Positions 2,491 to 63,974 are shown, counted from the stretch's first letter. The stretch is DNA of 64,000 nucleotides from Spirochaetota bacterium (GCA_022703505.1 JAKLDN010000001.1:219389-283388), one strand, 5' to 3'. Notes: a model not told the origin generated them from the sequence alone. Program-made: numbers and translations.

Positions 2491-3932
2491 GAAGCGTCTC
2501 CTTCGGGTTCGAGAAGGTAGATCACGCTGGGGCCCTCGACCCCCTTCAGGGCCGTCTTGAAGGGACCCCGGAACGAGAACCCCGGCGGCGTGCCGGCCGC
2601 GTCCCGGGCGTCCCGGGCCACCAGGATCTGTCCCGGCTTGGCCAGGCCGCAGAGCCGGGCGGCTATGTTGACCGAGGCTCCGATGACGGTGAAGTCCGCC
2701 CGGCGGGCCGAGCCGATCATGCCCTGGATCACCTCTCCGCAGGCGATGCCCGCCCCCAGGGCCAGGCCGTCGTAGGCTTCTCCGCCTTTCCGGGCCGCGG
2801 CCATGATGGCAAGGGCGGCGGAGCAGGCCCGGGCGGGGCTGTCCTCCCCCGAGAAGACCGCCACCACCTCGTCCCCCACGAACTTGTCCACGTCCCCCTG
2901 GTGCTCGTGGATGATCCGGGACTGCTCCTCCAGGAGCTTGTTGAGGATTCCGACCACCCGTTCCGGGTCGTGGGAACCCGTATAAGAGGTGAAGCCCCGG
3001 ACGTCCGTGAAGAGCAGGGTCTTCCGGACCCGCTTGGGCTCCTGGGAATCCTGGATCGCCCCGAGGGTGCCCGCGGAGACGTACTTGGTCAGTTCGGAGC
3101 GCTCCCGGAGTCCCCGGACCATGTCGTTCACCTGCCGTCCCAGCCGGGCGATCTCGTCGTTTCCCCGGACGCTGACGACTCCTCCGAAGTCCCCCTGGGC
3201 CACCCGTTCGCAGACCTTTCCGATGGCCGCGACGGGGGCGGCTACTCCCCGGTTCATGATGCTCCCCAGCGCCGCGGCCAGGATGATGGTCAGGACCAGG
3301 AAGCCCGCGCCGCCGGAGGCCAGGGCGAGATTTTCGGACCGGACGAAGGAACTGACGTCGAACTGGACCCCGATGACTCCGCGGATGGTGTGGTCGGAGC
3401 CGTGGCAGGCCGTACACCGGGGAAGGTTGATGAGGGGCCGGTAGATCTTGATGTAGACCGCCGCATCGTCCTCCTGGCGGAAGAACACGTCCTGGGGGGG
3501 CATGGACACCGCCTTGGGAAAGTGGACGCTGTCCGCGGGCATCTGCATCTCCAGGGCCGGGGACGATCGGGGGGCGAACTTTTCCCTGCGGATGTTCGCG
3601 TTGACCTCCTGGATGGTCCGGTTGTCGGAGAAGGCAATCTCCCCGTTCCGCCGGAACAGGGAGATCCGGACCTTGGGGTTGGCGCCCTCGATCTCCCGGA
3701 AGAACTGCACCGCGATCGGGGCCTCCCCGGGAAGCATGAAGTTCTCGATGGCGGTCTGGAGCATGGCCGCTTCCTGGTTCAGGCTCTCCCGGGTGACCTC
3801 CTGCCGGGAACTCGTGAGCACCAGGCCGAACATCAGGGCCGCTATCCCGAGGCCGACCGTCAGGGCAATCACGAGGATCCGGATGATCTTGGCCGCCAGG
3901 GTCGTCGTGCGGTGAGGGCGCATCGTTTCCAT
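2487..3932 (-). CDS. membrane adenylate/guanylate cyclase: heme-c (CTACH, DUF3365/Tll0287-like) periplasmic sensor, HAMP, class III cyclase domain
   Basis: This 481-aa ORF has two TM segments flanking a domain with a CTACH motif. A HAMP domain follows (APVAAIGKVCERVAQGDFGG), then a cyclase core (LLFTDVRGFTSY, FVGDEVVAVF, TVIGASVNIAARL). Confidence 0.85.
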   Translation of the reverse strand: METMRPHRTTTLAAKIIRILVIALTVGLGIAALMFGLVLTSSRQEVTRESLNQEAAMLQTAIENFMLPGEAPIAVQFFREIEGANPKVRISLFRRNGEIAFSDNRTIQEVNANIRREKFAPRSSPALEMQMPADSVHFPKAVSMPPQDVFFRQEDDAAVYIKIYRPLINLPRCTACHGSDHTIRGVIGVQFDVSSFVRSENLALASGGAGFLVLTIILAAALGSIMNRGVAAPVAAIGKVCERVAQGDFGGVVSVRGNDEIARLGRQVNDMVRGLRERSELTKYVSAGTLGAIQDSQEPKRVRKTLLFTDVRGFTSYTGSHDPERVVGILNKLLEEQSRIIHEHQGDVDKFVGDEVVAVFSGEDSPARACSAALAIMAAARKGGEAYDGLALGAGIACGEVIQGMIGSARRADFTVIGASVNIAARLCGLAKPGQILVARDARDAAGTPPGFSFRGPFKTALKGVEGPSVIYLLEPEGDAS

Positions 3933-4775: not shown

Positions 4776-4783
4776 ATGCCGAA

Positions 4784-4988
4784 GGCGCGGATTATCCGGG
4801 GCAGCCGGTCGCGCTGCCGCGCGACCGATCAACCGTGGCGCGCCGCAGGCGCGGATTATCCGGGGCAGCCGGTCGCGCTGCCGCGCGACCGATCAACCGT
4901 GGCGCGCCGCAGGCGCGGATTATCCGGGGCAGCCGGTCGCGCTGCCGCGCGACCGATCTACCGTGGCGCGCCGCAGGCGCGCCACGGT
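4784..4988. repeat. 64-bp tandem repeat, 3.1 copies, ending in a 12-bp-stem hairpin
   Basis: Units at 4784-4847 and 4848-4911 are identical. The unit at 4912-4975 differs by one base (A>T at 4959). Each unit contains the hairpin CGGTCGCGC-TGCC-GCGCGACCG. The terminal hairpin ACCGTGGCGCGC-CGCAG-GCGCGCCACGGT spans 4960-4988. Confidence 0.95.
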
Positions 4989-11849: not shown

Positions 11850-12248
11850 ATGGACATCCTCCTGCGCGCCACCATCTACATCTCGGTCGCCGTCATCCTG
11901 CTGTGGATGTTCCTGGGCCTCTTCGGCCCGTACCGGCGGCGCCGGACCCTCCTCAAGGCGGGGGACAAGGCCGCGACGGAGGACCTGCCCCGGACCTGCC
12001 CCCTCTGCGGCGAGGTCCTGTCGCCGGGGCAGAGGGTCAAGACCCGGGTGAACCCGGGCCAAGGGGACAAGCTCATGCAGATCTTCGGCTGTCCCCACTG
12101 CTACCCCCCCAACATTGAATGCAAGCGGATCTGTCCGGTCTGCGAGAAGGAAGTCCCCCGGCAGGGCTACGTGATCGCCCGGCTCTTCGAGCATCCCGGC
12201 CGCAAGCACGTCCACGTCCTGGGGTGCTCGGGCTGCCGGAACACGTGA
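11850..12248 (+). CDS. small membrane-anchored Cys-rich (4x CxxC) zinc-ribbon protein, function unknown
   Basis: The 132-aa ORF has an N-terminal TM segment (IYISVAVILLWMFLGLF) followed by CPLC, CPHC, CPVC and CSGC. Confidence 0.6.
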   Translation: MDILLRATIYISVAVILLWMFLGLFGPYRRRRTLLKAGDKAATEDLPRTCPLCGEVLSPGQRVKTRVNPGQGDKLMQIFGCPHCYPPNIECKRICPVCEKEVPRQGYVIARLFEHPGRKHVHVLGCSGCRNT

Positions 12249-22647: not shown

Positions 22648-22685
22648 CCGTTCACTTTCCACTGTCCACCGTCCACAGTCCACGG
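22648..22685. repeat. GTCCAC/TTCAC heptamer array (locus E) abutting a TATACT -10 box upstream of hppA
   Basis: The sequence CCGTTCACTTTCCACTGTCCACCGTCCACAGTCCACGG is immediately followed by TATACT at 22686-22691. Confidence 0.8.
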
Positions 22686-22751
22686 TATACTACCCCCGCG
22701 CCCGGGGAAGTCGACTCCGGGGCGATACACCAACGACGAAGGAGAGAAGCC

Positions 22752-25661: not shown

Positions 25662-26288
25662 TTGAACGTGTTCCGGGAGCCGATCGAAAAGGGTGACATC
25701 ACCTCGGAAGCCGGCCTCAAACGGACTTTCCGCGCCCTGGCCCTCCGCCTTCACCCGGACACCTGCCTGGCCGGCGACGCCGCCGAGCGGTTCCTTCGGC
25801 TCCGACGGGACTACGACGAAGCCCTCCGGGAGCGGGGCTGGCACCGGCCCGCCCCCGCCCCGGGGGAGCCCTTCTCCTTCGAGGCTTGCGTCGACCTATT
25901 CGGGGAGCTCGTGGGGGGAAACTTCCCCGCGGATCCCCGGGTGGGCCGGACGAACCGGGCTTATCGTCAGCGGGCGGAACGGCTGGACACCCTTTTAGGG
26001 AGCCTGGGGGGCGATTACGTCGGCCTGTTCCGGAAGGCCGAGGGGGAGCTCGAAACCCTGCGGGGGGACGACATAGTAGACAACCCGGACTTCAACCTCG
26101 TGAAGATCTTCCTGTGCAACCTCTACGACTGGCTCTCGTCCCGGCACCGGTTCTCGGGTCACTACGTGCGGACGGCCTATCCCCGGGTCCGGGAGATCCT
26201 GGACCGCCGGGGCTGCCCCGCCTCGGCCCGGTTCCTGGAGTTCCTCCTGGCCGGGGGAGCGCGGCGCGCGGGGGCGTCCCGGGACTAG
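25662..26288 (+). CDS. J-domain-like protein (HPD motif)
   Basis: [15 protein letters not shown] followed by [14 protein letters not shown] resembles J-domain helices II and III. The start is a non-ATG codon (TTG at 25662 or GTG at 25668). The stop TAG lies inside a CTAG hairpin element. Confidence 0.55.
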
Positions 26289-26432
26289 GAGTTTGTCGGG
26301 CTTGTCCACCTAAATAGTAAAAAAATCGCATTTGTGCGATTTTTCTACCTTGCAAACTCCAAAGGAGCCGTATAATCGGGATTTTTAGCGCCTATCGGCG
26401 CTAAAAATCCACAAGTCCGACAGGCTCCCTAG
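26285..26432. mobile_element. composite of two CTAG-bounded hairpin elements (subfamily 2 forward, subfamily 1 reverse), MITE/REP-like
   Basis: 26285-26360 has GGAGTTTG...CAAACTCC outer pairing and an AAAATCGCA-TTTG-TGCGATTTT core. 26364-26432 is the reverse complement of the element seen at 44511 and 62045. Confidence 0.8.
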
Positions 26433-27061
26433 GGACGCTGGATATAGTCCGCTGCGCCGAAGAGCCCCAGGGTGCCGGTCCGCCACTCCTCGTGGGCCTC
26501 CATCACCAGGCGCTCCACCTCGGACCAGGATTCCGCCCGGGGGGGCGGCAGGTGGCGGTTCGTGGAATTCCCGAACACGATGGTACGGCAGCCCTGGGCC
26601 CGGAGGTTCTCCACGTTGGAGGGTGAGTCGTCGATGTAGACGTGGGCTCCCACGGCCCCCTTGTCCTTCATGAAGCAGAGGTCCCAGTAGGGGATGGCGT
26701 GGGCGTCCAGCCAGTCGATGGTCTGGGCTATTGCTTCCTTGTGGAAGTATTTCAGGAAGAGCCGGTGGGTGATGATGCGGATGCGGATCCCACGCTCGGA
26801 CAGCTTGCGCAGGGTGGCCGAGGCGCCCTTCACGGGGGGCAGGATCCGGAAGAGGTCCCGCTGGGTCACGGCGAAACGGTGGAGCTTCTCGTAGCCCCCG
26901 AACTCGTCCAGCCCCCACTCGGAAAGGCCGAAGGACACGTCTGTGGCCAGGGACTCGACCGGCCGGTCCAGCCACTCCGCCGCGATCTGCCGCATGCTGG
27001 TGTAGAAGTCCCCCACCACCCCGTCCAGGTCCACGCCCAGGATGAAACTGCTCTCGTCCAT
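26429..27061 (-). CDS. HAD-superfamily 5'(3')-deoxyribonucleotidase-like hydrolase
   Basis: The HAD motif I is GVDLDGVVGDF. The start is taken at MDESSFILG (27061); the track ORF extends to 27175. Confidence 0.7.
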   Translation of the reverse strand: MDESSFILGVDLDGVVGDFYTSMRQIAAEWLDRPVESLATDVSFGLSEWGLDEFGGYEKLHRFAVTQRDLFRILPPVKGASATLRKLSERGIRIRIITHRLFLKYFHKEAIAQTIDWLDAHAIPYWDLCFMKDKGAVGAHVYIDDSPSNVENLRAQGCRTIVFGNSTNRHLPPPRAESWSEVERLVMEAHEEWRTGTLGLFGAADYIQRP

Positions 27062-27197
27062 ACCCGCCAGTATGGCGCGCCCGCCGCCGTCCGTCCACTC
27101 CTCCTTGGCCCCACCAAAATCGCCTAAGCTAAACTTCGACGCGCACTCGCCGAAGGAGGCGCGGAATGCTACCATGGGCTTCCATCAGGAGGCTCCC

Positions 27198-34623: not shown

Positions 34624-36162
34624 ATGAAGGATCCAGGGGCCGTTTCCAAGGGAACCCGCGAGCAGGCCCTGCGCTATATCGACTACGCCTCCCTGCAGGA
34701 ACGCTTCGACGCCCTGGTGCGCGGCGGCTCGGACCTGAAGACCCGCCGGAAATTCATCACCGACGTCTTCCTGGCCAAGAACCGGGCCATCCGGGACCTG
34801 GATTTCCGCACCCTGGATCCCCGGTCCATCGAGGACGACTACCTCCGGCCCCGGAAGGACTTGAGCTCCTTCGTACTGCGGAACTGGGTGAACGGGGTCT
34901 TCCTCCCATCCCTGGAGCCGGACCTGACGGGGGGACTCTTCCTCTTCGGCCTGGGACGGATGTTCTCGGCGTACAACGACGTGGGGGTCCAGTCCTGTAC
35001 CGACGCGGACCTGAATTTCGTGATCCAGGACGAGGTGCCCCCGGCCGGACGGAAGGTCCTAGAGACGGAGCTCCGGAAACTCCGGAAGGAAGCCTTCGAC
35101 CAGTTCGGCATCCTCATCGAGATCCACCCGGAATACACCATCCAGGACGCGAGCGCCGTCTCCGCCTCCCTGACCCATCCGGATCCGGAGCGGCGTCTCG
35201 GAAGCGCCCTCTTCTACAAGAGCAACGAGAAGAGCATCTTCGTATTCAAGGACCACCCGGAGCTCCGGGCGCGGGTGTTTTCCAAGGTGAGCGCCTTGCC
35301 GGACTCCTGCCTCTTCGAGCACTTCCTGGGTCTCGGGAGCGCCAAGAACTCCTTCCTGAAGATCCGGATGGACCGGACCCCCCTCACGGTCCTGGAGGAA
35401 TACACCTGCGAGCAGATCCAGACCCGGGCCGTCATCGGATCCCGGGCCTTCGGCCAGTACTGCTTCAAGACCCTCCGGAAGGTCCCCTTCGCCTCCCCGC
35501 CGGTCTGGTACTTCTCCATGAAGTACTTCGTCAACCGGGTCTACGACTACGTCTGCGCCATGCGGAACATGGGGTACGGGCTCCCGCAGATCGGCTTCGA
35601 CTCCGAGGATTCCACGGGAAGCCCCGATCCGGACTACCTCTTCCTGCGCAACGCCCACAAGCTCATGCTCTATCTCCAGGAGCTCATCCAGCTGTCCATG
35701 GAGTCCTTCGGGATGGAGTGCGACTACTCCTACATCTCCCGGGCGAGGTTCCTGAAGTTCATGGAGATCGACGGGGACAAGTTCCGCAAGAATTTCCAGG
35801 AACTCGTGCTGGGAGGGAAGCTCCTGCCTCCGACAGCCCGGGAAAAGTTCCTGCGCCTCAAGCGCAAGATCGAGGAGAAGTCCCGGGACCGGATCGTGCA
35901 CTGCGACAAGAAGGACCTGGAAGCCTTCCCGGAGGGCTTCAAGTACGAGACGATCGACCGGGACTCCGCTCGCCGCAGGATCTGGGTGCCCTATTCCTGG
36001 GCGGACCTGGGATTCTTCGTGTTCAACGTGATCGCCGCCCGGATCGGCCAGATCGTGGACTCCCGGCTGGTGCCGCCCCTCGCGCGCTTGGACGCCCGGG
36101 CCGGCGCCCCGGAGCCCGAGGCCGGAAGTCCCGCCCGGAAACGCGCCCGGCGTTCGGCCTAG
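34624..36162 (+). CDS. putative nucleotidyltransferase (GlnE/GlnD/DUF294-like Pol-beta fold) with a large helical C-terminal region
   Basis: FGLGRMFSAYNDVGVQSCTDADLNFVI resembles the hG[GS]x(9-13)DxD NTase signature, as in GlnE (GKLGGRELNxxSDIDL). No other domain was recognised. Confidence 0.6.
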   Translation: MKDPGAVSKGTREQALRYIDYASLQERFDALVRGGSDLKTRRKFITDVFLAKNRAIRDLDFRTLDPRSIEDDYLRPRKDLSSFVLRNWVNGVFLPSLEPDLTGGLFLFGLGRMFSAYNDVGVQSCTDADLNFVIQDEVPPAGRKVLETELRKLRKEAFDQFGILIEIHPEYTIQDASAVSASLTHPDPERRLGSALFYKSNEKSIFVFKDHPELRARVFSKVSALPDSCLFEHFLGLGSAKNSFLKIRMDRTPLTVLEEYTCEQIQTRAVIGSRAFGQYCFKTLRKVPFASPPVWYFSMKYFVNRVYDYVCAMRNMGYGLPQIGFDSEDSTGSPDPDYLFLRNAHKLMLYLQELIQLSMESFGMECDYSYISRARFLKFMEIDGDKFRKNFQELVLGGKLLPPTAREKFLRLKRKIEEKSRDRIVHCDKKDLEAFPEGFKYETIDRDSARRRIWVPYSWADLGFFVFNVIAARIGQIVDSRLVPPLARLDARAGAPEPEAGSPARKRARRSA

Positions 36163-36182
36163 GAGCCTGTCGGACCTGCTAG
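36159..36182. mobile_element. remnant of a CTAG hairpin element (16 nt between two CTAGs)
   Basis: CTAG-GAGCCTGTCGGACCTG-CTAG matches the first 20 nt of the 62045 element. Both CTAGs serve as stop codons of the convergent genes. Confidence 0.7.
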
Positions 36183-36964
36183 GGCAACCGGGCCTCGAGT
36201 TCCCCCTCCCCGTCGAAGGACCAGGACAGGGCTCGCAGCGCCTCCAGGGGCAGGGCGGGACTCCGGACCGTCCGCAGGGAAACCCAGCCGACGGAGAACT
36301 CCCTCCCTTCCAGCACCCCCGTCAGGGGCCCCGGCTTCCGGGGGAAGTCCAGCAGTCCGCCCCCGCCGCCTCCGGTCAGCCGCGAGAGCCGATACCTCCG
36401 AGGGCCGAAGAGGGGGGCGAGAGGGCCGGCCAGGTCCAGGACCCGGGCTTCCAGGGCGCAGTCCGATCCCTCCACCCGCACCCGGGACAGCACGGGCACG
36501 GCGTTCCGGTCCGGCACGGCCAGGTCGCCGGAAGCCCCCGCCGCGGTCGCCTCGTAGGGCACCAGGCGGGCGACTTCCCGGCCGGGCACCAAGGGGTGCC
36601 AGACCGAGGTCTCCCCCGCGGCCAGGCCCAGGAAGGAGAGGACCAGCACGGCCAGGGGAATTCCGGCCCGGCCCGGGAAGAACGCGGACAGGCATCCCAG
36701 GGCCCCCCAGGCGCCCGCCCAGATCCAGAGCGTCCGGTCCGCGAGCAGGGGTTTGGGCGGAAGGATGAGGAGCGCCGCCAGGCAGGCGACCGCCGCCGCG
36801 AGCCCCAGGGAAACCCCGCTGAGAACCCGTCGGGGTTTGCCCCCCCGGCCTGACCGGCCGGCGCTCAGGGCGAGCAGGCAGAAGGCCGCCGCCGCCCCCA
36901 GGGAAAGCCCCCCGAGGGCCGCAGCGGCCCAGCCGGCGCCCGCGGCGGCCAGCTCAGAATCCAT
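36179..36964 (-). CDS. hypothetical membrane protein
   Basis: The 261-aa ORF has 3-4 N-terminal TM segments followed by a soluble domain. Its start overlaps the upstream carboxypeptidase stop by 11 nt. Confidence 0.5.
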   Translation of the reverse strand: MDSELAAAGAGWAAAALGGLSLGAAAAFCLLALSAGRSGRGGKPRRVLSGVSLGLAAAVACLAALLILPPKPLLADRTLWIWAGAWGALGCLSAFFPGRAGIPLAVLVLSFLGLAAGETSVWHPLVPGREVARLVPYEATAAGASGDLAVPDRNAVPVLSRVRVEGSDCALEARVLDLAGPLAPLFGPRRYRLSRLTGGGGGGLLDFPRKPGPLTGVLEGREFSVGWVSLRTVRSPALPLEALRALSWSFDGEGELEARLP

Positions 36965-42438: not shown

Positions 42439-44514
42439 GTGTACCTGCGGGAACTGACCCAGAGCGTGTCCGCCCTGAAGGGGGCGGGTCCTTCGGTCTG
42501 CGCCCGGCTGGCCCGGCTGGGGGTGTACACCGTGGCGGACCTCCTTCTCAGGGCGCCCCGGGCCTACGAGGACCGCTCCCGGGCCGTGCCCTTCCGGGAG
42601 GCCCTGCGGACCGGCCTCCCGGCGAACACGGTGGGGGTGGTGACCGCCCACGACTGGTTCGGCTACGGCCGGACCCGGACCCTCAAGATCCTGGTGGACG
42701 ACGGGACCGCCGTCGCCGCCCTGGTCTGCTTCAACCGGGCCTTCCTGGCGGACCGCCACCCCGTGGGCTCCCGGTCCCGGGTCACCGGAAACCTGGCCCT
42801 CCGGTTCAACGAGCTCCAGGCCGCCTCCTTCGAAATAGAGGCGGCCGCGGAGGGACAGGGCCCCGAGGCGGGGGTCCTTCCCGTCTACCCCCTCACGGAC
42901 GGCTTGGCCCAAGGTACCGTCCGGAAGCTCGCGGCCCGGGCCCTGGCCGAGTACGGCCGCCGGGTGGAGGACGAGGTGCCGGTCCGGATCCGGGAGCTCC
43001 GGGGCCTGCCGCCCAAGGCCCGGGCCTTGGAGGACCTGCACGCCCCGGGCGACCCGGAGGCCGCGGAGCACGCCCTCCGTGCCCTGGCCTACGAGGAGCT
43101 CTTCTACCTCCAGGTCCTGGTGCGCCGCAGGGCCGCCGCCCGGGCGGAGCGCCCCGCGGACCGGTCCGCGGGCCCCCCGGCCCGGGCGGGGCTCCGCCCC
43201 CGGCTCCTGGAGCGCCTCCCCTTCCGCCTTACCGCGGACCAGGAGAAGGTGGCCGCCGAGATCGCCGCGGACATGGAAAAGCCCCGCCCCATGGCGCGCC
43301 TCTTGCAGGGGGACGTGGGCTCGGGTAAGACCCTGGTCGCCTTCCTGGCGGCCCTGAAGGCCGTCGAGTCCGGGGGGCAGGCGGCCCTGATGGCCCCCAC
43401 GGAGCTCCTGGCCCGGCAGCACGCCCAGACCGCCGCCCGGCTCCTGGAGCCCCTGGGGGTGCGCCTGGCCTTCCTGACCGGCAACCTCCGGGACGCCTCC
43501 CGCCGTCCCCTCCTGGCGGCCCTGGCCGCGGGGGAGGTGGACTTCGTCCTGGGGACCCACGCCCTCTTCTCGGAGGACGTGGAGTACCGGCGCCTGGCCC
43601 TGGCGATCGTGGACGAGCAGCACCGCTTCGGGGTGCTCCAGCGCCTGGCCCTGTCCCGCAAGGGCGGCGCACCGGACCTGCTCATGATGACCGCCACTCC
43701 CATACCGCGGACCCTGGCCCTGACGGTCTACGGGGACCTGGAGGTTTCCACCATCCGGACGATGCCTCCGGGCCGGAAGCCCGTGGTCACCCACCTGGCC
43801 CGGCACGGCAACGAGGCCAAGGTCTACGAGTTCGTTCGGAAGGAGCTGACGGAGGGACGGCAGGCCTACTTCGTCTACCCCCTGATCTCCGGCAGCGAGG
43901 CCGGGTCGCTCAAGGACGCCGAGGCCATGGCCCGGCACCTGGCCGAGGAGGTCTATCCCGGGATTCCCGGAGGCCTCATCCATTCGAGGTTGCCGGACGA
44001 GGAGAAACGCTCCGTCATGGAGGCCTTCACCCGGGGCGGGCTGCGGTACCTGGTCGCCACCAGCGTGGTCGAGGTGGGCGTGGACGTGGCTGCGGCCACC
44101 TGCATGGTGGTCGAGCACGCGGAGCGCTTCGGCCTGGCGGCCCTGCACCAGCTCCGGGGCCGGGTGGGCCGGAGCGAGGCCCAGTCCTACTGCTTCCTGG
44201 TCTATTCCCGGGACCTCTCGGAGGAGGGAAAGCGCCGTCTCAAGGCCATGAAGGAGACCACGGACGGGTTCGCCCTGGCGGAGGAAGACCTGCGCATCCG
44301 GGGTCCCGGCGAGATCGCGGGCATCGCCCAGTCGGGCTCCCTGCGGCTGGCCTTCGCGGATCCGGTCCGGGACGCGGACCTCCTGGAAACCGCCCGCCTG
44401 GACGCCGCCGGGATCGTGGACCGGGATCCGGGCCTTTTGGAGCCGGAGCACCGGGTGATCCGGGAGGTCCTGGATCGGGCCAACCCCTTCCCTGCGGAGA
44501 GCTCCGGAGCCTAG
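42439..44514 (+). CDS. recG: ATP-dependent DNA helicase RecG
   Basis: There is an N-terminal wedge/OB region. Helicase motifs are GDVGSGKT, DEQHRFG and TATPIPRTL, followed by the TRG-region motif QLRGRVGR. The start is GTG. Confidence 0.95.
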   Translation: MYLRELTQSVSALKGAGPSVCARLARLGVYTVADLLLRAPRAYEDRSRAVPFREALRTGLPANTVGVVTAHDWFGYGRTRTLKILVDDGTAVAALVCFNRAFLADRHPVGSRSRVTGNLALRFNELQAASFEIEAAAEGQGPEAGVLPVYPLTDGLAQGTVRKLAARALAEYGRRVEDEVPVRIRELRGLPPKARALEDLHAPGDPEAAEHALRALAYEELFYLQVLVRRRAAARAERPADRSAGPPARAGLRPRLLERLPFRLTADQEKVAAEIAADMEKPRPMARLLQGDVGSGKTLVAFLAALKAVESGGQAALMAPTELLARQHAQTAARLLEPLGVRLAFLTGNLRDASRRPLLAALAAGEVDFVLGTHALFSEDVEYRRLALAIVDEQHRFGVLQRLALSRKGGAPDLLMMTATPIPRTLALTVYGDLEVSTIRTMPPGRKPVVTHLARHGNEAKVYEFVRKELTEGRQAYFVYPLISGSEAGSLKDAEAMARHLAEEVYPGIPGGLIHSRLPDEEKRSVMEAFTRGGLRYLVATSVVEVGVDVAAATCMVVEHAERFGLAALHQLRGRVGRSEAQSYCFLVYSRDLSEEGKRRLKAMKETTDGFALAEEDLRIRGPGEIAGIAQSGSLRLAFADPVRDADLLETARLDAAGIVDRDPGLLEPEHRVIREVLDRANPFPAESSGA

Positions 44515-44581
44515 GAGCCTGTCGGACTTGTGGATTTTTAGCACCGATAGGCGCTAAAAATCCCGATTATTCGGCTCCTAG
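44511..44581. mobile_element. CTAG-bounded hairpin element (subfamily 1), followed by a 5' fragment of subfamily 2 (44578-44597)
   Basis: CTAG-GAGCCTGTCGGACTTGTGGATTTTTAGCACC-GATA-GGCGCTAAAAATCCCGATTATTCGGCTC-CTAG. The first CTAG contains the recG stop. Confidence 0.8.
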
Positions 44582-44608
44582 GAGTTTGTCGCGGGCGCCG
44601 ACTCGGGC

Positions 44609-46695: not shown

Positions 46696-48300
46696 CTAGA
46701 GGGCCGCGGCGACCACCCGGTTCCTGCCGGCCTGTTTGGCCGCGTACAGGGCCTTGTCCGCGGCCCGGATCAGTTCGAAGGGTCCCAGGGCCGAGGGCAG
46801 CGCGCAGGAATACCCCAAACTGATGGTGACCCTAATCTCGACGCCTTCGTGCACGAAGGCGGTATCCTCCACAGCCTTCCGGATCCGCTCGCAGTAGGCC
46901 GCAGCCTCCCCGGAACTCCGGGCGTTCAGGATGACCGCGAACTCCTCCCCCCCGTAGCGCCCGACGATGTCGCCGTCCCGGCCGGAACGGAGGATCAGCC
47001 CCGCCGTCTCCTTCAGGACCGTATCCCCGGCCTGGTGTCCGAAGGTGTCGTTGACGGACTTGAAGTGGTCGATGTCCATCATGACGAAGCAGACGGGACG
47101 GTCGTCCCGCCGGCTCCTCCGGATCTCGAAGTCCAGGAACTCCTCGATCTTCGCGTGGTTATAGAGGCCCGTCAGGCTGTCCCGGGCCGCGCTCTCCTTC
47201 AGGAGGCCCTCCCGGTCCCTCACCGCCTTGGCCATCCGGTTGAAGGTGTCCACGAGGTTGTCCAGTTCGGTGTTCGTCCGGGGAGCCTGGACCTCCGGGT
47301 ACTCCCGCTCCTCCAGGGTTCCCGCGGCTTCGGCCAGGGCCCGGATGGGGCGTATCAGCCGGGCGCTCAAGGCGTAGGCCAGGACGAGCTGGAGCACCAG
47401 GAGCCCGGCGGCGAACTGGGCGAAGAACTCCAGGAGGCGGGTGATGGGCAGGTAGGCCTGGTCGCTGCGGAGCTCCACCACCATGCCCAGGTTCAGGCGG
47501 GGACACCAGCCGTAGGCTCCGATGACGGTCCGCCCCGACTCGCCGCGGTACTTGGCGACTCCCTCCCTCCGGGCGACGGCCTCCCGTACCGCGAGGTTGT
47601 CCAGCACGGGGCCCTCCTCCGCGGTATCCGCGGGGGATCGGAAATCCGCCTCGGACGAGGCGGCCACCAGCCTCCGCTCCGGATCGGTGATGTAGACGGA
47701 GCCCAGGCTGCCCAGCCCCATGCTCTCCACGATGCGGACCAGGTCGGCCAGAAGGACCGTCCCCGCCAGGACGCCCCGGATCTCCCCCCGATACCGCAGG
47801 GGACGGCTGACCGCGAAGGCGTACCTCCCCGTCAGGCGGTTGCGGAAGACCCCGGAGACGAAGGCCCTTCCCTCCCGGGCCGCCTGGAAGTAGTCCCGGT
47901 CCGCCAGGCTCACCTTCCGGGCCGGGGGGCCGGATCGCCCGAACACCACATTCCCCTCCAGGTCCAGGAGGAGGGCATCCGAGAAGGAGTCCTTGGCTTC
48001 CAGGAGAGCCTTGAAGCGGTCGTGCGCGTCCGGGGCCAGGGGGGTCCCGGCCCGCTCCGCGTCGGATTCCAGGATCGAGGCCATCCATGCTATGTCGCTC
48101 TCCCGCTCGGCCAGCCAATCCTGCAAAGCCAGCATGACCGCGTCCCGGTAGAACCCCGCAAGCCCCGTCTCCCGGGTCTCGATTGCGGACTTGGTCCGGA
48201 AGTAGATTCCCGCCACCATGAAGGCGAAGATGAAGACGGTGAGCACGGCGAGAACGAGGAACTGCTGCCGGAAGAGCCGGCTCCGGAACATCGATTTCAT
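46696..48300 (-). CDS. diguanylate cyclase with periplasmic Cache-like sensor and HAMP
   Basis: It has a TM segment, a sensor, a second TM segment and a HAMP domain. The GGDEF domain includes RYGGEEF and RVTISLGY. Its ATG overlaps the epmA stop (ATGA at 48297-48300). Confidence 0.9.
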   Translation of the reverse strand: MKSMFRSRLFRQQFLVLAVLTVFIFAFMVAGIYFRTKSAIETRETGLAGFYRDAVMLALQDWLAERESDIAWMASILESDAERAGTPLAPDAHDRFKALLEAKDSFSDALLLDLEGNVVFGRSGPPARKVSLADRDYFQAAREGRAFVSGVFRNRLTGRYAFAVSRPLRYRGEIRGVLAGTVLLADLVRIVESMGLGSLGSVYITDPERRLVAASSEADFRSPADTAEEGPVLDNLAVREAVARREGVAKYRGESGRTVIGAYGWCPRLNLGMVVELRSDQAYLPITRLLEFFAQFAAGLLVLQLVLAYALSARLIRPIRALAEAAGTLEEREYPEVQAPRTNTELDNLVDTFNRMAKAVRDREGLLKESAARDSLTGLYNHAKIEEFLDFEIRRSRRDDRPVCFVMMDIDHFKSVNDTFGHQAGDTVLKETAGLILRSGRDGDIVGRYGGEEFAVILNARSSGEAAAYCERIRKAVEDTAFVHEGVEIRVTISLGYSCALPSALGPFELIRAADKALYAAKQAGRNRVVAAAL

Positions 48301-49315: not shown

Positions 49316-49807
49316 CTAGACGCCGGCGGCGGCGGGTTCCGCGGCGCGGAGGACTTCCATGTCCTCGGAGTTGAAGATCCGGTCGATGTCCAGGAGGATG
49401 ACGAAGCCCTCGTCCCGCTTGCCGACACCCCGTATGAACTCCGTGGCCAGCCGGGTCCCGAATTTCGGGGCGGGTTCCACGCTCCCGGCCTCGATCTCCA
49501 CGACCTCGTGGACCGCGTCCGCCAGGGCCCCCACGACGACGGGACCCTCCGGCCCCTCCACCTCCATCACGATGATGCTGGTGTCCTTGGTGACCGGGGT
49601 CTCGGGCATCCCGAACTTGAGGCGGAGGTCTATGACGGGAACTCCCATGCCGCGAAGGTTGATGAGGCCCTTCATGTACTCCGCGGTCTTGGGCAGTTTG
49701 GTGATCTTGGTGTGTTCCAGGACTTCCCGGACCTTGGCGACGCCGATGGCGTACTGCTCGCCTTCCAGGGTGAAGGTCAGGTACTGGTTGGCTGTGGTTC
49801 CTTCCAT
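49316..49807 (-). CDS. cheW: chemotaxis coupling protein CheW
   Basis: The 163-aa ORF has YLTFTLEGEQYAIGVAKVREV and GLINLRGMGVPVIDLR. Confidence 0.95.
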   Translation of the reverse strand: MEGTTANQYLTFTLEGEQYAIGVAKVREVLEHTKITKLPKTAEYMKGLINLRGMGVPVIDLRLKFGMPETPVTKDTSIIVMEVEGPEGPVVVGALADAVHEVVEIEAGSVEPAPKFGTRLATEFIRGVGKRDEGFVILLDIDRIFNSEDMEVLRAAEPAAAGV

Positions 49808-59471: not shown

Positions 59472-62048
59472 ATGGACCTCACGCTTCCCGTCACCGACCC
59501 GGTCGGCGTCTTTTTTATTCTCTTCGCCGCCCTCTTCGCGGCCCCCATCCTGGCGGAACTGGTCCGACTGCCCGGACTGGTGGGGACGGTGCTCGCGGGA
59601 ATGCTCCTGGGACCCCACGCCCTGGGACTGCTCGACGCCGGCGCCTTCCTGGAAACCCTGGGAGGCTTCGGCCTTCTGTACATCTTCTTCACCGCGGGAC
59701 TGGAGCTCGACCTCCGCAAGCTTCGCCGGAAATCCGCCGACGCCGTCGTCTTCGGGGGGCTGACCTTCCTGATCCCCCTCGGGCTGGGGTACGCGGCGGG
59801 GATCCTGGTGTTCGGCCTGCCCGTGGTGCCCGCCGTCCTGTTCGGAAGCCTCTTCGCCTCCCACACGATGCTGCCCTATCCCATCGTCCAGGCGATGGGC
59901 CTGTCCGGAAGCCGGGCGGTGTACGCCTCCGTCGGGGCCACGACGATAACGGACATCCTGGCCATGTTGGCCCTGGCCCTCACGACCGCCGGTTCCGGTC
60001 CGGGCTGGGAGTTCTGGCTCAAGACCCTGGGGATCCTCACCGCCTGGACCGTCGGGGCGGCCCTGCTCCTGCCGCCGCTCATCAGCCGGTTCTTCCGGCG
60101 GATCAAGTCCGGTGGGTCTTCTGAGTTCCTCTTCGCCCTGGCGGTGGCCTTCTTCTGCTCCGCCGCCGCGGCCCTGGCCGGGATCGAGCCGGCCGTGGGA
60201 GCCTTCGCCGCGGGCATCCTCCTGAACCGCCACATTCCCGAGCGCAGCGGCCTCATGTCCCTGCTCAAGTTCGCCGGGGATGCCCTGTTCATCCCCCTGT
60301 GCGTGCTGTACATAGGCGTCCTCACCGATGCGAGGGCCCTGCTCACGGACGGGCGCATGGCCGCCCTCGCCGCGGTCATGCTGGGGGTGGTGCTGGTCTC
60401 CAAGTACGCCTCCTCCCTCTTCCTCAAGCCCCTGTTCGGCTTCTCCCTGGGGGAGGTGAACATCTCCTTCGGGCTTTCCGTCAACCAGACGGCGTCCACC
60501 CTGGCCGCCGCCCTGGTCGGGTATCGGCTGGGACTGCTCGGGGAGGCCGTCTTGAACGGGACGGTGGTCATGTTCATCGTGACCTGCGCCCTGGGACCCT
60601 TCGTCACCCGAAGGGCCGCGTCCGCCCTGGCGGTGGAATCCACCCGGGGGCAGGCGGGACCCGGGCTCACGGGGGAGCGGATCCTGATCGCGGTCTCCAA
60701 TCCCGGCACCCTCCGCCCCTTGACGGACTTCGCGTTCCTGATGCGGGACCCGAAGTCTCCGGAGCCGGTCCTGCCGGTCTGCGTGGTCCAGGACTCGCCC
60801 AACGCGGACCGGGACCTGGAGCAGGCCGAGACGGTCCTGGCCCAGGCCATCGCCCAGGGCGTGGCCGAGGGAGTCCCGGTCAAGCCCTCCACCCGGGTCA
60901 GCCTCAACGCGGCGGAAGGCATCCTGCAGGCCGCCGAGGACCAGGAGGCCACGACGGTGCTGGTGGGATGGAACCGCCCGCCCCGGCCGTCGGGGGCCAT
61001 CTTCGGGGACGTCATCGACCAGGTGGTGGCGGGAGGCCGCCACCTGACCGTCGTGGCCCGCCTGCGCAGGCCCCTGCCGGAGTCACCTTCCCTGGTCCTG
61101 GTGGTCCCGCCCTTCGCGGAGAGGAATCCCGGAGCGGCCCGGGCCTACGCCCTCATGCGGCGGATCCTGGGCGGCGTTCCCGCCAAGCTCACGGTGTTGA
61201 CCCTGGCCTCCGACTCCTCCGGGGTCCGCGATTCCCTGCGGCGCATCCGGGGAGCGGCTCCCCACATCCAGGAGCTGGAATCCTGGAAGGAATTCTCCGG
61301 TGCGATCGCCAAGCAGCCCGAGGGAACCGCCTTCCTCTTCCTCTGTCCCCGGCCGGGACGCCTGGCCTGGCATCCCTACCTGGAACAGCTGCCCCGGGAC
61401 GCGGCCGAGGCCTTCCCGGACTCGACCCTGATGGTGACCTACCTTCCGGACGAAGGAGGCGGCGCGGAGAACTACCCGGCCGCGGCCGCGGAGTCCGTCT
61501 CGGGTCCGGCCGGGGAGGCGGCCGGCCCCGCTGCGGAAGGCACGACGCCCGCGCCGGCTCCGGCCGCCGAGGGGATACCCGAGCCCGCTGCTCCTCCCGA
61601 CTCCTCGGACCTCTTCTATCGGACCCTGGCCGGGTCCGGCCGGGTCATCCCCGACTTGCCCGCGGCGGCCGTGGTGGACGCCGTCCGGATCCTCCTGGAA
61701 CGGGGGTTCCCGGGCGACCGGAGGAGCGTGAACCGCCTGACCGGGATCTACGCGGAGATAGCCCAGAAACAGCCCATCGAGCTGGCCCCCGGAGTCCTCC
61801 TCCTGCACGCCCACGTGGACAATATCGAGGAGCCCCGCATCCTGATCGGAGCCAAGCCCGCGGGACTCCGTCTGCTGGCCCTGGAGGAGCCCATCCGGAT
61901 CGTGGTCCTGCTCTGCGCGCCGAGTTCCCAGTCCCCGGAGGACCACCTCCGGACCCTTTCCCTGATCGCCCAGGCCCTGAAGCGCCCGGAACGGGTGGCC
62001 CGGATCCTGGCCGCCAAGACCGAGGAGGATCTCCGGGAAGACTCCTAG
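59472..62048 (+). CDS. CPA2-family cation:proton antiporter fused to a Usp-like region and a C-terminal PTS EIIA(type 2) domain
   Basis: The N-terminal 380 aa or so form a Na_H_exchanger-type membrane domain. The C-terminal part has LLLHAHV and IRIVVLLCAP, characteristic of EIIA-Ntr/Fru-type domains. Confidence 0.85.
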   Translation: MDLTLPVTDPVGVFFILFAALFAAPILAELVRLPGLVGTVLAGMLLGPHALGLLDAGAFLETLGGFGLLYIFFTAGLELDLRKLRRKSADAVVFGGLTFLIPLGLGYAAGILVFGLPVVPAVLFGSLFASHTMLPYPIVQAMGLSGSRAVYASVGATTITDILAMLALALTTAGSGPGWEFWLKTLGILTAWTVGAALLLPPLISRFFRRIKSGGSSEFLFALAVAFFCSAAAALAGIEPAVGAFAAGILLNRHIPERSGLMSLLKFAGDALFIPLCVLYIGVLTDARALLTDGRMAALAAVMLGVVLVSKYASSLFLKPLFGFSLGEVNISFGLSVNQTASTLAAALVGYRLGLLGEAVLNGTVVMFIVTCALGPFVTRRAASALAVESTRGQAGPGLTGERILIAVSNPGTLRPLTDFAFLMRDPKSPEPVLPVCVVQDSPNADRDLEQAETVLAQAIAQGVAEGVPVKPSTRVSLNAAEGILQAAEDQEATTVLVGWNRPPRPSGAIFGDVIDQVVAGGRHLTVVARLRRPLPESPSLVLVVPPFAERNPGAARAYALMRRILGGVPAKLTVLTLASDSSGVRDSLRRIRGAAPHIQELESWKEFSGAIAKQPEGTAFLFLCPRPGRLAWHPYLEQLPRDAAEAFPDSTLMVTYLPDEGGGAENYPAAAAESVSGPAGEAAGPAAEGTTPAPAPAAEGIPEPAAPPDSSDLFYRTLAGSGRVIPDLPAAAVVDAVRILLERGFPGDRRSVNRLTGIYAEIAQKQPIELAPGVLLLHAHVDNIEEPRILIGAKPAGLRLLALEEPIRIVVLLCAPSSQSPEDHLRTLSLIAQALKRPERVARILAAKTEEDLREDS

Positions 62049-62115
62049 GAGCCTGTCGGACCTGTAGATCTTTAGCGCCTATCGGCGCTAAAGATTCCGA
62101 TTATCCGCCTCCTAG
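62045..62115. mobile_element. CTAG-bounded hairpin element (subfamily 1)
   Basis: CTAG-GAGCCTGTCGGACCTGTAGATCTTTAGCGCC-TATC-GGCGCTAAAGATTCCGATTATCCGCCTC-CTAG. The first CTAG contains the antiporter stop. Confidence 0.8.
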
Positions 62116-62123
62116 TCCCGCCC

Positions 62124-63974
62124 CTATTCCGCCATGGACACCACGGCCAGGGCGCCCCGTCCGGCGTTCAGGGCGATGACCGAGGAGATCTCCATGACGT
62201 ACTCCGGGGGGAAGCCCAGGGCCGCCTCCAGACGCCGGACCAGGTCCTGCGCCCCCTCCGGGTCGTGGGCGTGCACCACCGCGTAGTTCCGGAGCTTCCC
62301 GGACCGGTGCTTGGCCAGGGTCATATCCAGGATCCTTTTCAGGTTGGCCTCCACACTGAAGGCCTTGCCGTACAGTTTCGAGGAGCCGTCCCTCTCCAGG
62401 GACACGATGGGCTTGAGGTTCAGGATCTTCGCGGCCAGGCCCTGGAGGGGGCTGACCCGGCCGCCCCGGACCATGTAGCGCAGGGTCCGCACGGAGACCA
62501 GGATGTCCGCCTTGTCGGACCAGGCCGGAAGGTCCGCCAGGATGCGGTCGTGGGACCGGCCCTCCGCCACGGCCCGGGCGGTCCGGAGGACCACGAGGCC
62601 CAGGGAGCCGGACAGGTGTCGGGAATCCACGACGTCGATGCGCTTCCCGGTCTCCGCCGCGACCTGTTCCGCCGCGCGCCGGCTGGCCTCCAGGGTGCCG
62701 GAAAGCTTTCCCGCAAGATGCACCGCGATGATCGAATCGTAACGTTCCGCCAGGAACCGGTAGGTCCGGAGGAAGACGGCCCCCGAGGGCTGGGAGGACT
62801 TGGGGAAGGACGGGGCCCTGTCCGCGAGCTCGTAGAAACGCTCCGGGGAGAGGGTCCTGCGGTCCAGGTATTCCACCTCCCCCACCCGGATATGGAGGGG
62901 CACGACGTGGACCTGGTATTCCTCCAGGAGCGCCGCGGGAAGGTCGCAGCCCGAATCCGTGACCACGGCGATGGGGTATTTACGGACATGGGCGGTCAGG
63001 AACTGCTCCTTCATGTCGTCCACCTTCTGCTGGAGGACGTCCCCCCGGGCGGACAGGCGTTCGATCAGGTCCGCCGGACGGTCCGTGTGGATATGGATCC
63101 GGAGCTTCCTGCGGTTCCCGGCCACGATCAGGGAATCCCCCAGGTCGGAGACCTCCGACCGTATGGATTCCGGGTCCAGGTCCCGGCCCACCACCAGGGC
63201 TTCCGTGCAGTACCGGTGTCTGAGTTCCGAAAGGTCGTGGAGGTCCGGGGCTTCCCCTCCCGGATCCAGGTCCGAGATGTCCAGGGCTTCGTCCGCATCC
63301 TCTCCGCCTTCCACGTAGGAGTGGGCCCCCGCCACAAAGGCGACGAAGCCGGAAGCCCCCGCGTCCACGACCCCGGCGGCCTTGAGCTCCGCCAGGCGGT
63401 TGGGGGTGTCGGCCAGGGAGCTGTGCAGGGCCGGAAGGGTGCCCCCCAGGAGTTCCCGGAAATTCCGTGCCCGGCCGAGCTCGGCCCGCAGGGCGGCCGC
63501 CCAGTCCCCGATCAGGGACAGGATGGTGCCGTCCCGGGGGTTGGAGATGGCGGAACGGGCCCGGGAATAGGCGTTTTCCACCGCGGCCACGAACTTCTCC
63601 ATGCTGATGGTGGCCGCGTCCGTGAGGGCCTCGTAGAATCCCGAGATGAACTGGGCGAAGATGACCCCCGAGTTCCCCCGGGCCCCGGCCAAAGCCGCGT
63701 CGGCTATGTTCTCCATGGTCTTGCCGGCGGAATCCGTGGGCCGGGAACTCTCCACCGCGGAGGCCAGGGTGGCGGCCAGGTTGGTACCGGTATCGCCGTC
63801 GGGCACGGGAAAGACGTTGATCCGGTCCAGCTCCTTGCGGACTCCCAGTACGCGCCGGGCCCCCGCCCGGAATACCCGGTAGATCTGATGTCCGTCGAGT
63901 TCGTGCATCGGTCCTCCACGTTCGGCTGAAACCGCCGGTGCCTCATCGCGAATCCAAGGATACTGGTTCGACAC
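62124..63974 (-). CDS. DAK2 (DhaL-like) domain fused to a DegV fatty-acid-binding domain
   Basis: The N-terminal part has PDGDTGTNL and ARGNSG (DhaL/FakA-N type). The C-terminal part has IAVVTDSGCDLP and the DegV layout. The true start may be ATG 63908 (MHELDG). Confidence 0.8.
   Translation of the reverse strand: MSNQYPWIRDEAPAVSAERGGPMHELDGHQIYRVFRAGARRVLGVRKELDRINVFPVPDGDTGTNLAATLASAVESSRPTDSAGKTMENIADAALAGARGNSGVIFAQFISGFYEALTDAATISMEKFVAAVENAYSRARSAISNPRDGTILSLIGDWAAALRAELGRARNFRELLGGTLPALHSSLADTPNRLAELKAAGVVDAGASGFVAFVAGAHSYVEGGEDADEALDISDLDPGGEAPDLHDLSELRHRYCTEALVVGRDLDPESIRSEVSDLGDSLIVAGNRRKLRIHIHTDRPADLIERLSARGDVLQQKVDDMKEQFLTAHVRKYPIAVVTDSGCDLPAALLEEYQVHVVPLHIRVGEVEYLDRRTLSPERFYELADRAPSFPKSSQPSGAVFLRTYRFLAERYDSIIAVHLAGKLSGTLEASRRAAEQVAAETGKRIDVVDSRHLSGSLGLVVLRTARAVAEGRSHDRILADLPAWSDKADILVSVRTLRYMVRGGRVSPLQGLAAKILNLKPIVSLERDGSSKLYGKAFSVEANLKRILDMTLAKHRSGKLRNYAVVHAHDPEGAQDLVRRLEAALGFPPEYVMEISSVIALNAGRGALAVVSMAE

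Follow-up and report, generated by a model that had tools for sequence, protein, structure and literature searches.

CTAG-bounded hairpin repeats between convergent genes of a Spirochaetota bacterium: probable miniature elements related to IS1182

The Repeats and Their Genomic Setting

The window analyzed here is a stretch of 64,000 nt from a contig of a Spirochaetota bacterium (GCA_022703505.1 JAKLDN010000001.1:219389-283388). At four loci it carries short repeats of a hairpin-forming family, always between two convergent genes and with CTAG on both sides: one complete 141-nt element with two hairpins, two 65-nt copies of its A-half and two remnants consisting of a single end. The window has 69% GC, while the elements have 45-55%. 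The named relatives of its RecG protein (62-65% identity) belong to Treponema, Rectinemataceae, and Spirochaetes metagenome-assembled genomes (MAGs), and the host is thus a spirochaete. The repeats are very probably small non-autonomous transposons, i.e., MITEs (miniature transposable elements with inverted repeats), and remnants of these, related to the IS1182 family of insertion sequences (ISs) and inserting at CTAG.

Six open reading frames (ORFs) stop in the CTAG tetranucleotides that bound the elements, 25662..26288(+), 26429..27175(-), 34624..36162(+), 36179..36964(-), 42439..44514(+), and 59472..62048(+). A preliminary description of the window had pointed out both these six stops and the convergent genes at all four loci, and the ORF ends agree with it. 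Gene calls on identical contigs identify 42439..44514(+) as recG, the minus-strand gene at 26429 encodes an NT5C nucleotidase with spirochaetal relatives, and the gene ending at 62048 encodes a Na/H-exchanger fusion protein.

The repeats themselves, as described earlier, are real. The 14-mer GGAGCCTGTCGGAC is found four times without mismatch, at 26415-26428 on the minus strand and starting at 36162, 44514, and 62048, while by our own calculation chance would give about 0.0005 occurrences of a random 14-mer in 128 kb. A repeat search of the window showed that three of these copies continue to 65 nt, with pairwise identities of 86-97%. They share the layout GGAGCCTGTCGGAC(C/T)TGT, a 13-14-bp stem made up of an A/T run and a GC core, a 4-nt loop, the return arm, and CGATTAT-N-CG(G/C)CTCC. 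Neither an nhmmer profile nor an unfiltered covariance model run across the 64-kb window found copies beyond those listed in Table 1. The elements are small and non-coding, and the ORFs over them are flanking frames reading in.

The 65-nt unit, previously given as about 70 bp, is only half of the complete element. At 26285-26432, where an A copy was thought to lie beside a member of another subfamily, there is a single 141-nt composite of an A-half with hairpin 1 and an X-half with hairpin 2. It matches positions 1-151 of the full-length profile (nhmmer, E 2e-33), and the same composite is found in L126, L127, L130, L169, L192, L225, and L257 (L numbers denote loci outside the window). Its A-half scores 71.8 bits with the covariance model R1. 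The X-half terminates in ...ACAAGCCCGACAAACTCC, an inverted and slightly diverged version of the A end (GGAGTTTGTCGGGCTTGT vs. GGAGCCTGTCGGACTTGT). The 18-nt ends agree at 15 of the 18 positions and form imperfect terminal inverted repeats (TIRs). The locus at 36159-36182 was correctly taken to belong to the family as far as its CTAG bounds and its end are concerned, but it has no hairpin and is just a 17-nt end remnant (R1 21.8 bits, E 0.002). Similarly, the second element proposed at 44578 does share a CTAG with its neighbor and is truncated, but it is an 11-nt X-end remnant of the same family and not a different subfamily.

Table 1. Features of the repeat loci in the window (positions counted from its first nucleotide)
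Feature	Position	Strand	Remarks
CTAG flank of the complete element	26285..26288		TAG 26286-26288 is the stop of the plus-strand ORF 25662..26288 (J-domain protein according to the preliminary description)
Complete two-hairpin element (probable MITE), 141 nt	26288..26428	-	A end GGAGCCTGTCGGACTTGT at 26428, X end GGAGTTTGTCGGGCTTGT at 26288
A-half of the complete element, 65 nt	26364..26428	-	Hairpin 1 at 26379-26410, 14-bp stem, 4-nt loop
X-half of the complete element	26288..26360	-	Hairpin 2 at 26317-26348 (A-run, stem, loop, stem, T-run)
A-half/X-half junction	26361-26363		AAA as written, TTT in the element's own sense
CTAG flank	26429..26432		The minus-strand NT5C 5'(3')-deoxyribonucleotidase gene ends here; its TAG stop is the CTA at 26429-26431
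CTAG, 17-nt solo A-end remnant GGAGCCTGTCGGACCTG (36162-36178), CTAG	36159..36182	+	No hairpin
CTAG flank	44511..44514		TAG 44512-44514 is the recG stop
A-half element, 65 nt	44514..44578	+	Hairpin 1 at 44532-44563; R1 70.9 bits
Common CTAG (44578-44581) and 11-nt solo X-end remnant GGAGTTTGTCG (44581-44591)	44578..44591	+	Followed by the original flank CGGGC
CTAG flank	62045..62048		TAG 62046-62048 ends the Na/H-exchanger-EIIA-Usp gene
A-half element, 65 nt	62048..62112	+	Hairpin 1 at 62066-62097; R1 57.3 bits
CTAG flank, duplicated copy	62112..62115		Holds no stop codon; that of the downstream minus-strand gene is at 62124-62126

Empty Sites and Duplication of the Target

CTAG is present on both sides of the insert at all four loci, and at three of them relatives with 84-92% protein identity contain a single, empty CTAG or CTAA. 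Since these empty sites hold only one copy, CTAG is duplicated on insertion and is the target-site duplication, as had been suspected.

The comparison is richest at the 3' end of recG. The contigs encoding an identical RecG (L001-L003, 100%) are filled, and so is L148 (98%), X remnant included. L145 (90%) reads GGAGC-CTAG-GCCCGG, and the one CTAG is the stop for both convergent genes. The site is also empty in L149 (89%, GGAGC-CTAG-GCTGCC) and in L146 (84%, CGC-CTAG-CGGGC), and because L146 has CTAG directly followed by CGGGC, the same pentanucleotide at 44592-44596 in the window is the original flank. L147 (84%) and L150 (80%) have a different stop codon and no element. At 36159 the window reads GGC-CTAG-GAGCCTGTCGGACCTG-CTAG-GGCA and L145 reads GGC-CTAA-GGCG, which amounts to a 20-bp insertion in the window. 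At 62045 the site is empty in L280 (92% identity), which reads GGCTC-CTAG-TCCCCGCCCCTATTCC; the window has GACTC-CTAG, 64 nt, and CTAG-TCCC-GCCCCTATTCC, a precise 68-bp insertion. No syntenic relative of the locus at 26285 was found for an empty-site comparison.

In L145 two convergent gene pairs overlap by 4 nt, at 12073-12076 and 3745-3748, so that one CTAG or CTAA stops the genes on both strands. Insertion in the window lineage has parted the two stops that overlap in L145.

Three short-read contigs with an identical NT5C gene (L273-L275, Logan) all end 30 nt into the element, corresponding to 26399-26428 of the window. These ends are the usual assembly breaks induced by a repeat.

The duplication may comprise 4 bp or 2 bp. 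With G as the first and C as the last nucleotide of the element, a 4-bp duplication of CTAG and a 2-bp duplication of TA give the same sequence. The precedent of the IS1182 family favors 4 bp, while TA duplication fits slightly better with an element in L140 flanked by CTA...TAA and with the TAA, TAT, or TAC found at seven of the 76 right flanks left unconstrained by the search described below.

Relationship to the IS1182 Family

Full-length ISs with the same ends have been found outside the window, as anticipated when a search for a transposase with matching terminal repeats was proposed. L135 (WPAE01000196.1), a 1566-bp contig from an Ignavibacteria MAG, contains a 1560-bp IS, CTA-GGAGCCTGTCGGACTT...AAGTCCGACAGGCTCC-TAG. 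Its 449-aa ORF scores 355 bits on NCBIfam NF033551 (IS1182 family), for which the cutoff is 270 bits, and has DUF772 and DDE_Tnp_1 domains (Pfam). Another four full-length ISs bearing these ends were identified among metagenome loci, and three of them, L263, L245, and L211, have CTA...TAG on both sides. The IS of L263 (90-1576) has the left end GGAGCCTGTCGGACTTGT, identical to the A end of the MITE at 18 of 18 positions, and the right end GGAGCCTGTCGGGCTTAT, with the GGGC variant that characterizes X ends. The ISs of L245 and L211 lie at 528-2190 and 4-1549, respectively. In L238, a metagenome contig from a set in which the MITE is abundant, the IS (1036-2561) adjoins a MITE copy (861-1012), its left flank is CCA, and its left end is degenerate. 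The NF033551 scores are 363 bits for L245, 349 for L211, and 298 for L238, while the fragment of the broken ORF in L263 scores 145 bits, which is under the cutoff. The four transposases are 39-57% identical to that of L135. The ends of L135, L245, and L211 are the same as the MITE end over 14-16 nt, and the MITEs share only their first 16-18 nt with the ISs.

When plasmids were searched by tblastn with the L135 transposase, annotated IS1182-family elements of cultured bacteria were found, and the four that were examined have related ends, G(G/C)AGCnTGTCGGAC(TT). CTA...TAG flanks surround ISAzo1 of Aromatoleum aromaticum EbN1 (GCAGCGTGTCGGACT) and the elements of Methylobacter (GGAGTCTGTCGGAC) and Persicobacter (GGAGCCTGTCGGAT); on P. 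putida pKF715A only the left end (GCAGCCTGTCGGTC), with its CTA flank, was found. Among the nine ISs examined, seven thus have CTA...TAG, while in the L238 and P. putida copies one end lacks it or was not found. The end sequence and the CTAG flank are therefore a property of a large IS1182 subgroup that crosses phyla.

These features agree with what has been reported for the family. In ISPse1 the inverted repeats measure 16 bp and the direct repeat 4 bp (PMC3281130), and the IS1182-derived MITEPye1 has 18-bp TIRs and 4-bp direct repeats (PMC11578231). Palindromic targets have also been described: that of ISPsy36 is GGCC (PMC8027508), and IS1272 targets inverted-repeat structures (PMC5678879). 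The IS5-type partner suggested earlier was right insofar as the partner family is IS5-related, but this is the separate IS1182 family (NF033551) and not IS5 proper.

The intact unit is thus composed of imperfect 18-bp TIRs (GGAGCCTGTCGGACTTGT/GGAGTTTGTCGGGCTTGT) and two internal hairpins. In the proposed mechanism a transposase of the IS1182 family, supplied in trans, would place the element in a palindromic CTAG, and this CTAG, or formally perhaps only its TA, would be doubled such that both flanks again read CTAG.

Copies in Other Genomes and Metagenomes

A genome scan found the composite with the same A/X junction in the spirochaete MAGs Treponema sp. AS27yjCOA_177, Treponematales JTS-AC310, Treponema sp. 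Po218_bin16, and Spirochaetia MS495-2. A metagenome scan, in which most of the copies came from sets rich in the element and from activated-sludge contigs, gave 76 distinct full copies of 124-182 nt (mostly 139-157 nt). Their right flank was not constrained by the search pattern, and it is TAG in 61 and TA in 69 of them. In other contigs nhmmer found 83 full copies, as well as about 21 that consist of the A-half alone. Treponema and contigs from termite gut or sludge thus hold at least 83 full copies in addition to that of the window. The intact unit is about 141 nt in the window lineage and about 151 nt in Treponema from termite gut, and 13 TIR pairs are conserved among 72 aligned full copies. 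Together with the empty sites and the ISs, these copies bear out the earlier proposal of non-autonomous mobile elements at CTAG.

Tandem arrays with one common CTAG occur in L157, L186, L195, L223, and L260. Since every insertion recreates two CTAG targets, such arrays are to be expected, and so is the pair of an A-half and an X-end remnant at 44511-44591.

The ends are also found on other bodies. MITEs of 161 bp with unrelated bodies and the same CTA-GGAGCCTGTCGGACTT ends are present in Nitrospiraceae and Gammaproteobacteria MAGs (L125 4578-4738, L136 7087-7247, L140 209-369, and L141 3848-4000); L177 also carries a MITE with an unrelated body, and a family of about 250 bp with the same ends is seen in other metagenomes (L161, L172, L229, and L239). 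The end sequence is conserved over at least five phyla. L255 (Ga0265303_10037544, 1675-1710) reads CTA-GGAGCCTGTCGGAC-TTG-TCCGACAGGCTCC-TAG, a bare 31-nt TIR-TIR hairpin with CTAG flanks, which is either a minimal element or the footprint of an excision or deletion.

A scan of viral contigs with the bare 14-mer mostly gave chance matches, and among the matches listed the 18-mer with a CTA flank was found only in L015, L062, and L123, loci that are cut at the match such that no IS is readable there. Matches in Bradyrhizobium, Acidisphaera, Eubacteriales, and Alphaproteobacteria (L128, L129, L132-L134, L137, and L142-L144) were taken as chance; they have no CTA flank and lie in coding-like sequence. 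In a literature search the element sequence matched only the Geobacter sulfurreducens primer OmcE_fwd, GAGCCTGTCGGACTTGGAAAT (PMC11077965, Table 2), the first 16 nt of which equal the element end. This suggests that a copy of the IS/MITE end may lie upstream of omcE in Geobacter sulfurreducens.

Insertion at Stop Codons

CTAG is scarce in the window, with 22 sites vs. 110 ± 9 in shuffled sequences (a five-fold depletion), and eight of the 22 are element boundaries. Most of the other 14 also end long open frames, for instance those of the gene-called GGDEF gene at 46696 and cheW at 49316. Among the 76 full copies found elsewhere, the TAG of the flank closes a frame of at least 80 codons on 15 of 74 A sides and on 15 of 67 X sides, while the two control frames gave 2-8. 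The link between the elements and TAG stops is therefore real and about three-fold enriched, without being universal and without orientation preference. The absence of a directional bias is what neutral insertion predicts.

The simplest explanation for the position of the window copies would be as follows. CTAG would be a strict target that is rare within genes, and insertions that disrupt genes would be lost, so that the surviving copies are those exactly at TAG stops. Many of the remaining CTAGs would be such stops, including the overlapping stops of convergent genes. As the duplication would leave each flanking gene with an intact TAG of its own, the proteins would be unharmed, and survivors would sit on stop codons because insertions there spare proteins. 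Selection is thus the probable cause of the placement. It had been suggested that the ends of the elements supply stop codons to the flanking genes. The stop codons do lie in the CTAG, but they predate the elements, because the empty sites in relatives already have them; insertion has preserved or duplicated the stops and has supplied none anew.

Half Elements and Remnants

The 65-nt elements at 44514 and 62048 most probably arose from full copies by deletion, a conclusion that we hold with moderate confidence. CTCCT is present both at the inner junction (GGCTCC-TT...) and at the outer end (...AAACTCC-TAG), and the deletion might have occurred by slippage between the two; the solo ends at 36162-36178 and 44581-44591 would be what remained once the rest of an element was lost. 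The deletion route is favored because the halves resemble co-resident full copies, because other derivatives are common, and because the terminal repeat of the half is just 6 bp. The half at 44514 is 97% identical to the A-half ending at 26428 and 86% identical to the half at 62048, and in L158 the half and full copies are 1 nt apart. Other deletion derivatives are found at L157 2884 and in L249, L185, and L267, in addition to the bare TIR-TIR hairpin of L255.

A possible though rather doubtful alternative is that the A-half, with ends GGAGCC...GGCTCC and a CTAG target, is the minimal unit moved alone by the same transposase, and that the 141-nt element is a tandem fusion of A and X. A-half-only copies occur in unrelated contigs, where TAG comes directly after at least 10 of them and TA after 14 of the roughly 17 clean ones, and the half at 62048 is the precise insertion relative to L280 described above. 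Each half has a short terminal repeat of its own, GGAGCC/GGCTCC in A and GGAGTTTG/CAAACTCC in X, TCGG is kept at the inner A end in a shifted position, and tandem insertions sharing a CTAG are common. However, a microhomology deletion at CTCCT yields an identical CTCC-TAG boundary, the halves are closest to co-resident full copies and not to each other, further deletion derivatives are known, and the 6-bp repeat falls far short of the 16-18-bp TIR of the ISs. Deletion from full copies is therefore preferred.

Structure and Constraint of the Hairpins

The whole element folds into a TIR stem and two hairpins, with a mean energy of -59 kcal/mol and a z-score of about -9 relative to shuffled sequences. 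The pairing of hairpin 1 was counted both register-free and in a model-based alignment of 101 distinct sequences. In the register-free count at least 12 of 13 contiguous pairs are formed in 71 of 87 distinct A-halves, which contain 50 different 5' arms, vs. 2 of 1740 shuffles. In the model-based alignment, which is fitted to the structure and hence biased toward pairing, both sides vary in 12 of the 13 pairs of hairpin 1, and 91% of the cells in hairpin 1 and 93% over all 19 pairs are paired, vs. 36-55% with slid partners. There are 171 double-change cells vs. 53 ± 9 in shuffles, and none of 500 shuffles reaches the observed number. As the covariance model put the window subgroup in an imperfect register, these pairing counts are understated. 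RNAalifold on a MAFFT alignment of the full copies, where the hairpins are out of register between subgroups, returned the TIR stem only.

The mismatches in hairpin 1 have no strand bias (23 G:T vs. 28 A:C), and the energies of the top and bottom strands of the whole element are similar. In the X-half, the top strand has an excess of G:U pairs (122 vs. 25) without a difference in energy. Hairpin 1 of the copy at 44514-44578 has a single A/C mismatch, which is polymorphic (G in L003). Within three stem classes the loop is found in both orientations, GATA 6 vs. TATC 2, AAATA 4 vs. TATTT 2, and AAATA 2 vs. TATTT 2. In the window the loop at 62080-62083 is TATC, flipped relative to the GATA at 44546-44549 and 26393-26396. 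Loop flips in otherwise co-oriented elements are seen, besides the window copies, in L139, L158, L186, L204, L260, and L265. The hairpin head has thus been inverted repeatedly. The retained pairing, the lack of a strand bias, and the flipped loops speak for DNA-level constraint or correction, by a palindrome or cruciform or by template switching, and not for a strand-specific RNA.

Hairpin 1 has a T-run before and an A-run after the stem on both strands, which is the reverse of the order in terminators. Hairpin 2, found in the window only in the 26288 copy, has the terminator-like order of A-run, stem, and T-run. A consensus terminator and promoter scan of three loci, which absorbed these runs into the stem, found no site in any element; the sole terminator-like match, 26644-26658, is outside them. 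The window has no match in Rfam 15 at the gathering score, and at E <= 1 the best hit for the full element, isrK (17.1 bits vs. a threshold of 50, E 0.11), is not credible. Membership in a known RNA family, which had been named as a finding that would speak against mobile elements, is thus not observed.

Weighing the Explanations

Some observations weigh against probable IS1182-related MITEs or fit them poorly. No transposase was detected in the 64-kb window or near the first loci by tblastn with the L135 transposase, in line with the preliminary description. The 65-nt halves, with a terminal repeat of only 6 bp (GGAGCC/GGCTCC), would not on their own be recognized as MITEs by their TIRs, and it is from comparisons that we infer their origin by deletion. 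The window copies differ from each other by 3-14%, and contigs with 98-100% RecG identity are all filled at recG, the sole locus compared in such close relatives, so no recent movement is seen. The 4-bp and 2-bp duplications look alike, and the single extra base at 26428/26429, where CTAG-GGAGCC is found rather than CTA-GGAGCC, is extra under either. Finally, the pairing of hairpin 1 is kept far beyond what a decaying relic needs, which a plain MITE model does not explain.

The very stable fold, the compensatory changes in hairpin 1, the terminator-like hairpin 2, and the location of all four loci between convergent genes would be accommodated if the elements were 3'-end structures maintained by the host, either bidirectional terminators or REP-like (repetitive extragenic palindromic) structures that stabilize mRNA, with the transposon features secondary. 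This alternative had been raised in the preliminary description, and we consider it distinctly improbable. Relatives with 84-92% identity have no elements at the orthologous sites, with overlapping or closely spaced stops instead, and the ends are the same as the termini of IS1182 ISs across phyla. The terminator scan, which absorbs the runs of hairpin 2 into its stem, calls no hairpin, the runs of hairpin 1 are in the wrong order, the copies at 44514 and 62048 have no hairpin 2, there is neither strand asymmetry nor an orientation bias relative to the adjacent gene, and Rfam contains no match. A secondary host effect of the hairpins may exist. Among mobile elements, those of the IS630/Tc1-mariner type prefer CTAG and duplicate TA. 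The G at the start and the C at the end of the element, together with the CTAG target and the TAA, TAT, and TAC flanks including that in L140, would fit such a TA duplication. Nevertheless, a MITE of this type is very unlikely, as all the full-length elements found with these ends encode an IS1182 transposase (four intact ones at 298-363 bits, and the L263 fragment also matches), those plasmid ISs that bear an annotation are assigned to IS1182 and the ends of the four examined are related, and no IS630-type element with these ends turned up, though no dedicated search was made. Mobilization as REPs or REPINs (REP doublets forming hairpins) by an IS200/IS605-like REP-associated tyrosine transposase (RAYT) has hardly any probability. 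The elements are indeed short, palindromic, extragenic, and multi-copy at gene 3' ends, but they have a target-site duplication and empty sites with a single CTAG, their 16-18-bp termini are those of the DDE-type IS1182, and the 141-nt unit contains two different hairpins, unlike a 20-40-nt REP or an inverted REP pair.

A broader reading, which is speculative and which we consider unlikely, would extend the MITE explanation to the host range and the hairpins. The CTAG-targeting IS1182 subgroup and its MITEs would then be a pan-bacterial colonizer with a preference for TAG stops, the CTAG common to overlapping convergent genes among them, and with hairpins under selection. This selection could serve transposition, with the hairpin as a structural signal in a family that recognizes palindromes, or the host, with the elements as bidirectional terminators or insulators that uncouple convergent genes; the smallest substrate on which the family can act could be the 65-nt unit, and the loop flipping could reflect an active cruciform or template-switch process. 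The strand-symmetric covariation of hairpin 1, the flipped loops, the recurrent CTAG-bounded halves, and the presence of the ends in at least five phyla bear on this reading.

Comparison with Known Elements

The window elements are a known kind of mobile element and not a new system, as IS1182-derived MITEs have already been described; the abundant spirochaete family is new. MITEPye1 of Paracoccus yeei, likened here by its description and not by sequence comparison, is also non-coding, intergenic, and multi-copy, forms a stable stem-loop, and has 18-bp TIRs matching the ends of IS1182-family ISs and 4-bp flanking direct repeats (PMC11578231). It differs in its host, which belongs to the Alphaproteobacteria and not to the Spirochaetota, and in having 1-3 copies per chromosome, whereas the window family is abundant and has a strict CTAG target, a two-hairpin body, and many half and deletion derivatives. 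With ISAzo1 and the IS1182 ISs of L135, L245, L211, L263, and L238 the elements share the terminal G(G/C)AGCnTGTCGGAC(TT) and CTA...TAG flanks, and the family is reported to have 4-bp direct repeats and palindromic targets (PMC3281130, PMC5678879, PMC8027508). The ISs are 1.5-1.7 kb and carry a transposase gene, while the window elements are 65-141 nt and non-coding.

REPs, in bacterial interspersed mosaic elements (BIMEs) and REPINs, are likewise extragenic palindromes at gene 3' ends, often between convergent genes, but they are 20-40 nt long, have no target-site duplication, and are tied to RAYTs of the HUH type; the window elements have a duplicated CTAG and DDE-type IS ends. Correia elements (Correia repeat enclosed elements, CREE) of Neisseria are MITEs as well; they measure about 100-150 bp and have TIRs and a duplication that includes TA. 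They are very abundant, gene-adjacent, and co-transcribed, and they can serve as terminators or processing sites; such host effects have been shown by experiment for Correia elements. To our knowledge they differ from the window elements in having an unrelated sequence, an unknown partner transposase, and no CTAG or stop-codon specificity.

For annotation, the low-GC hairpins of these elements are better masked as repeats than annotated as small RNAs or terminators. The elements account for several CTAG-ending genes in this host, for breaks in short-read assemblies, and for the presence of such hairpins between convergent genes. The data link a large IS1182 subgroup with a widespread end, G(G/C)AGCnTGTCGGAC, and with strict targeting of CTAG, and add an abundant Treponema/spirochaete family to the single IS1182-derived MITE described. 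The stop-preserving geometry of insertion would be a clean case of target choice and purifying selection placing mobile DNA at gene ends. Current understanding is not overturned by this, and the kept and flipping hairpins are a small puzzle.

Other Repeats in the Window

Two further sets of repeats were noticed. Three tandem copies of a G+C-rich 64-nt unit, 97-99% identical, are found at 4778-4981. Inverted paired arrays of a 7-8-bp unit, with up to about nine tandem units, lie between genes at 9315-9350/9396-9462, 11720-11755/11755-11837, 45853-45888/45935-45985, 59302-59337/59408-59449, and 22658-22699. The unit reads GTGAATAG or GGTGAATGG on one side and the complement CCCATTCACC on the other, and the arrays have the appearance either of another repeat family, unrelated to the first, or of sites arrayed for binding a regulator.

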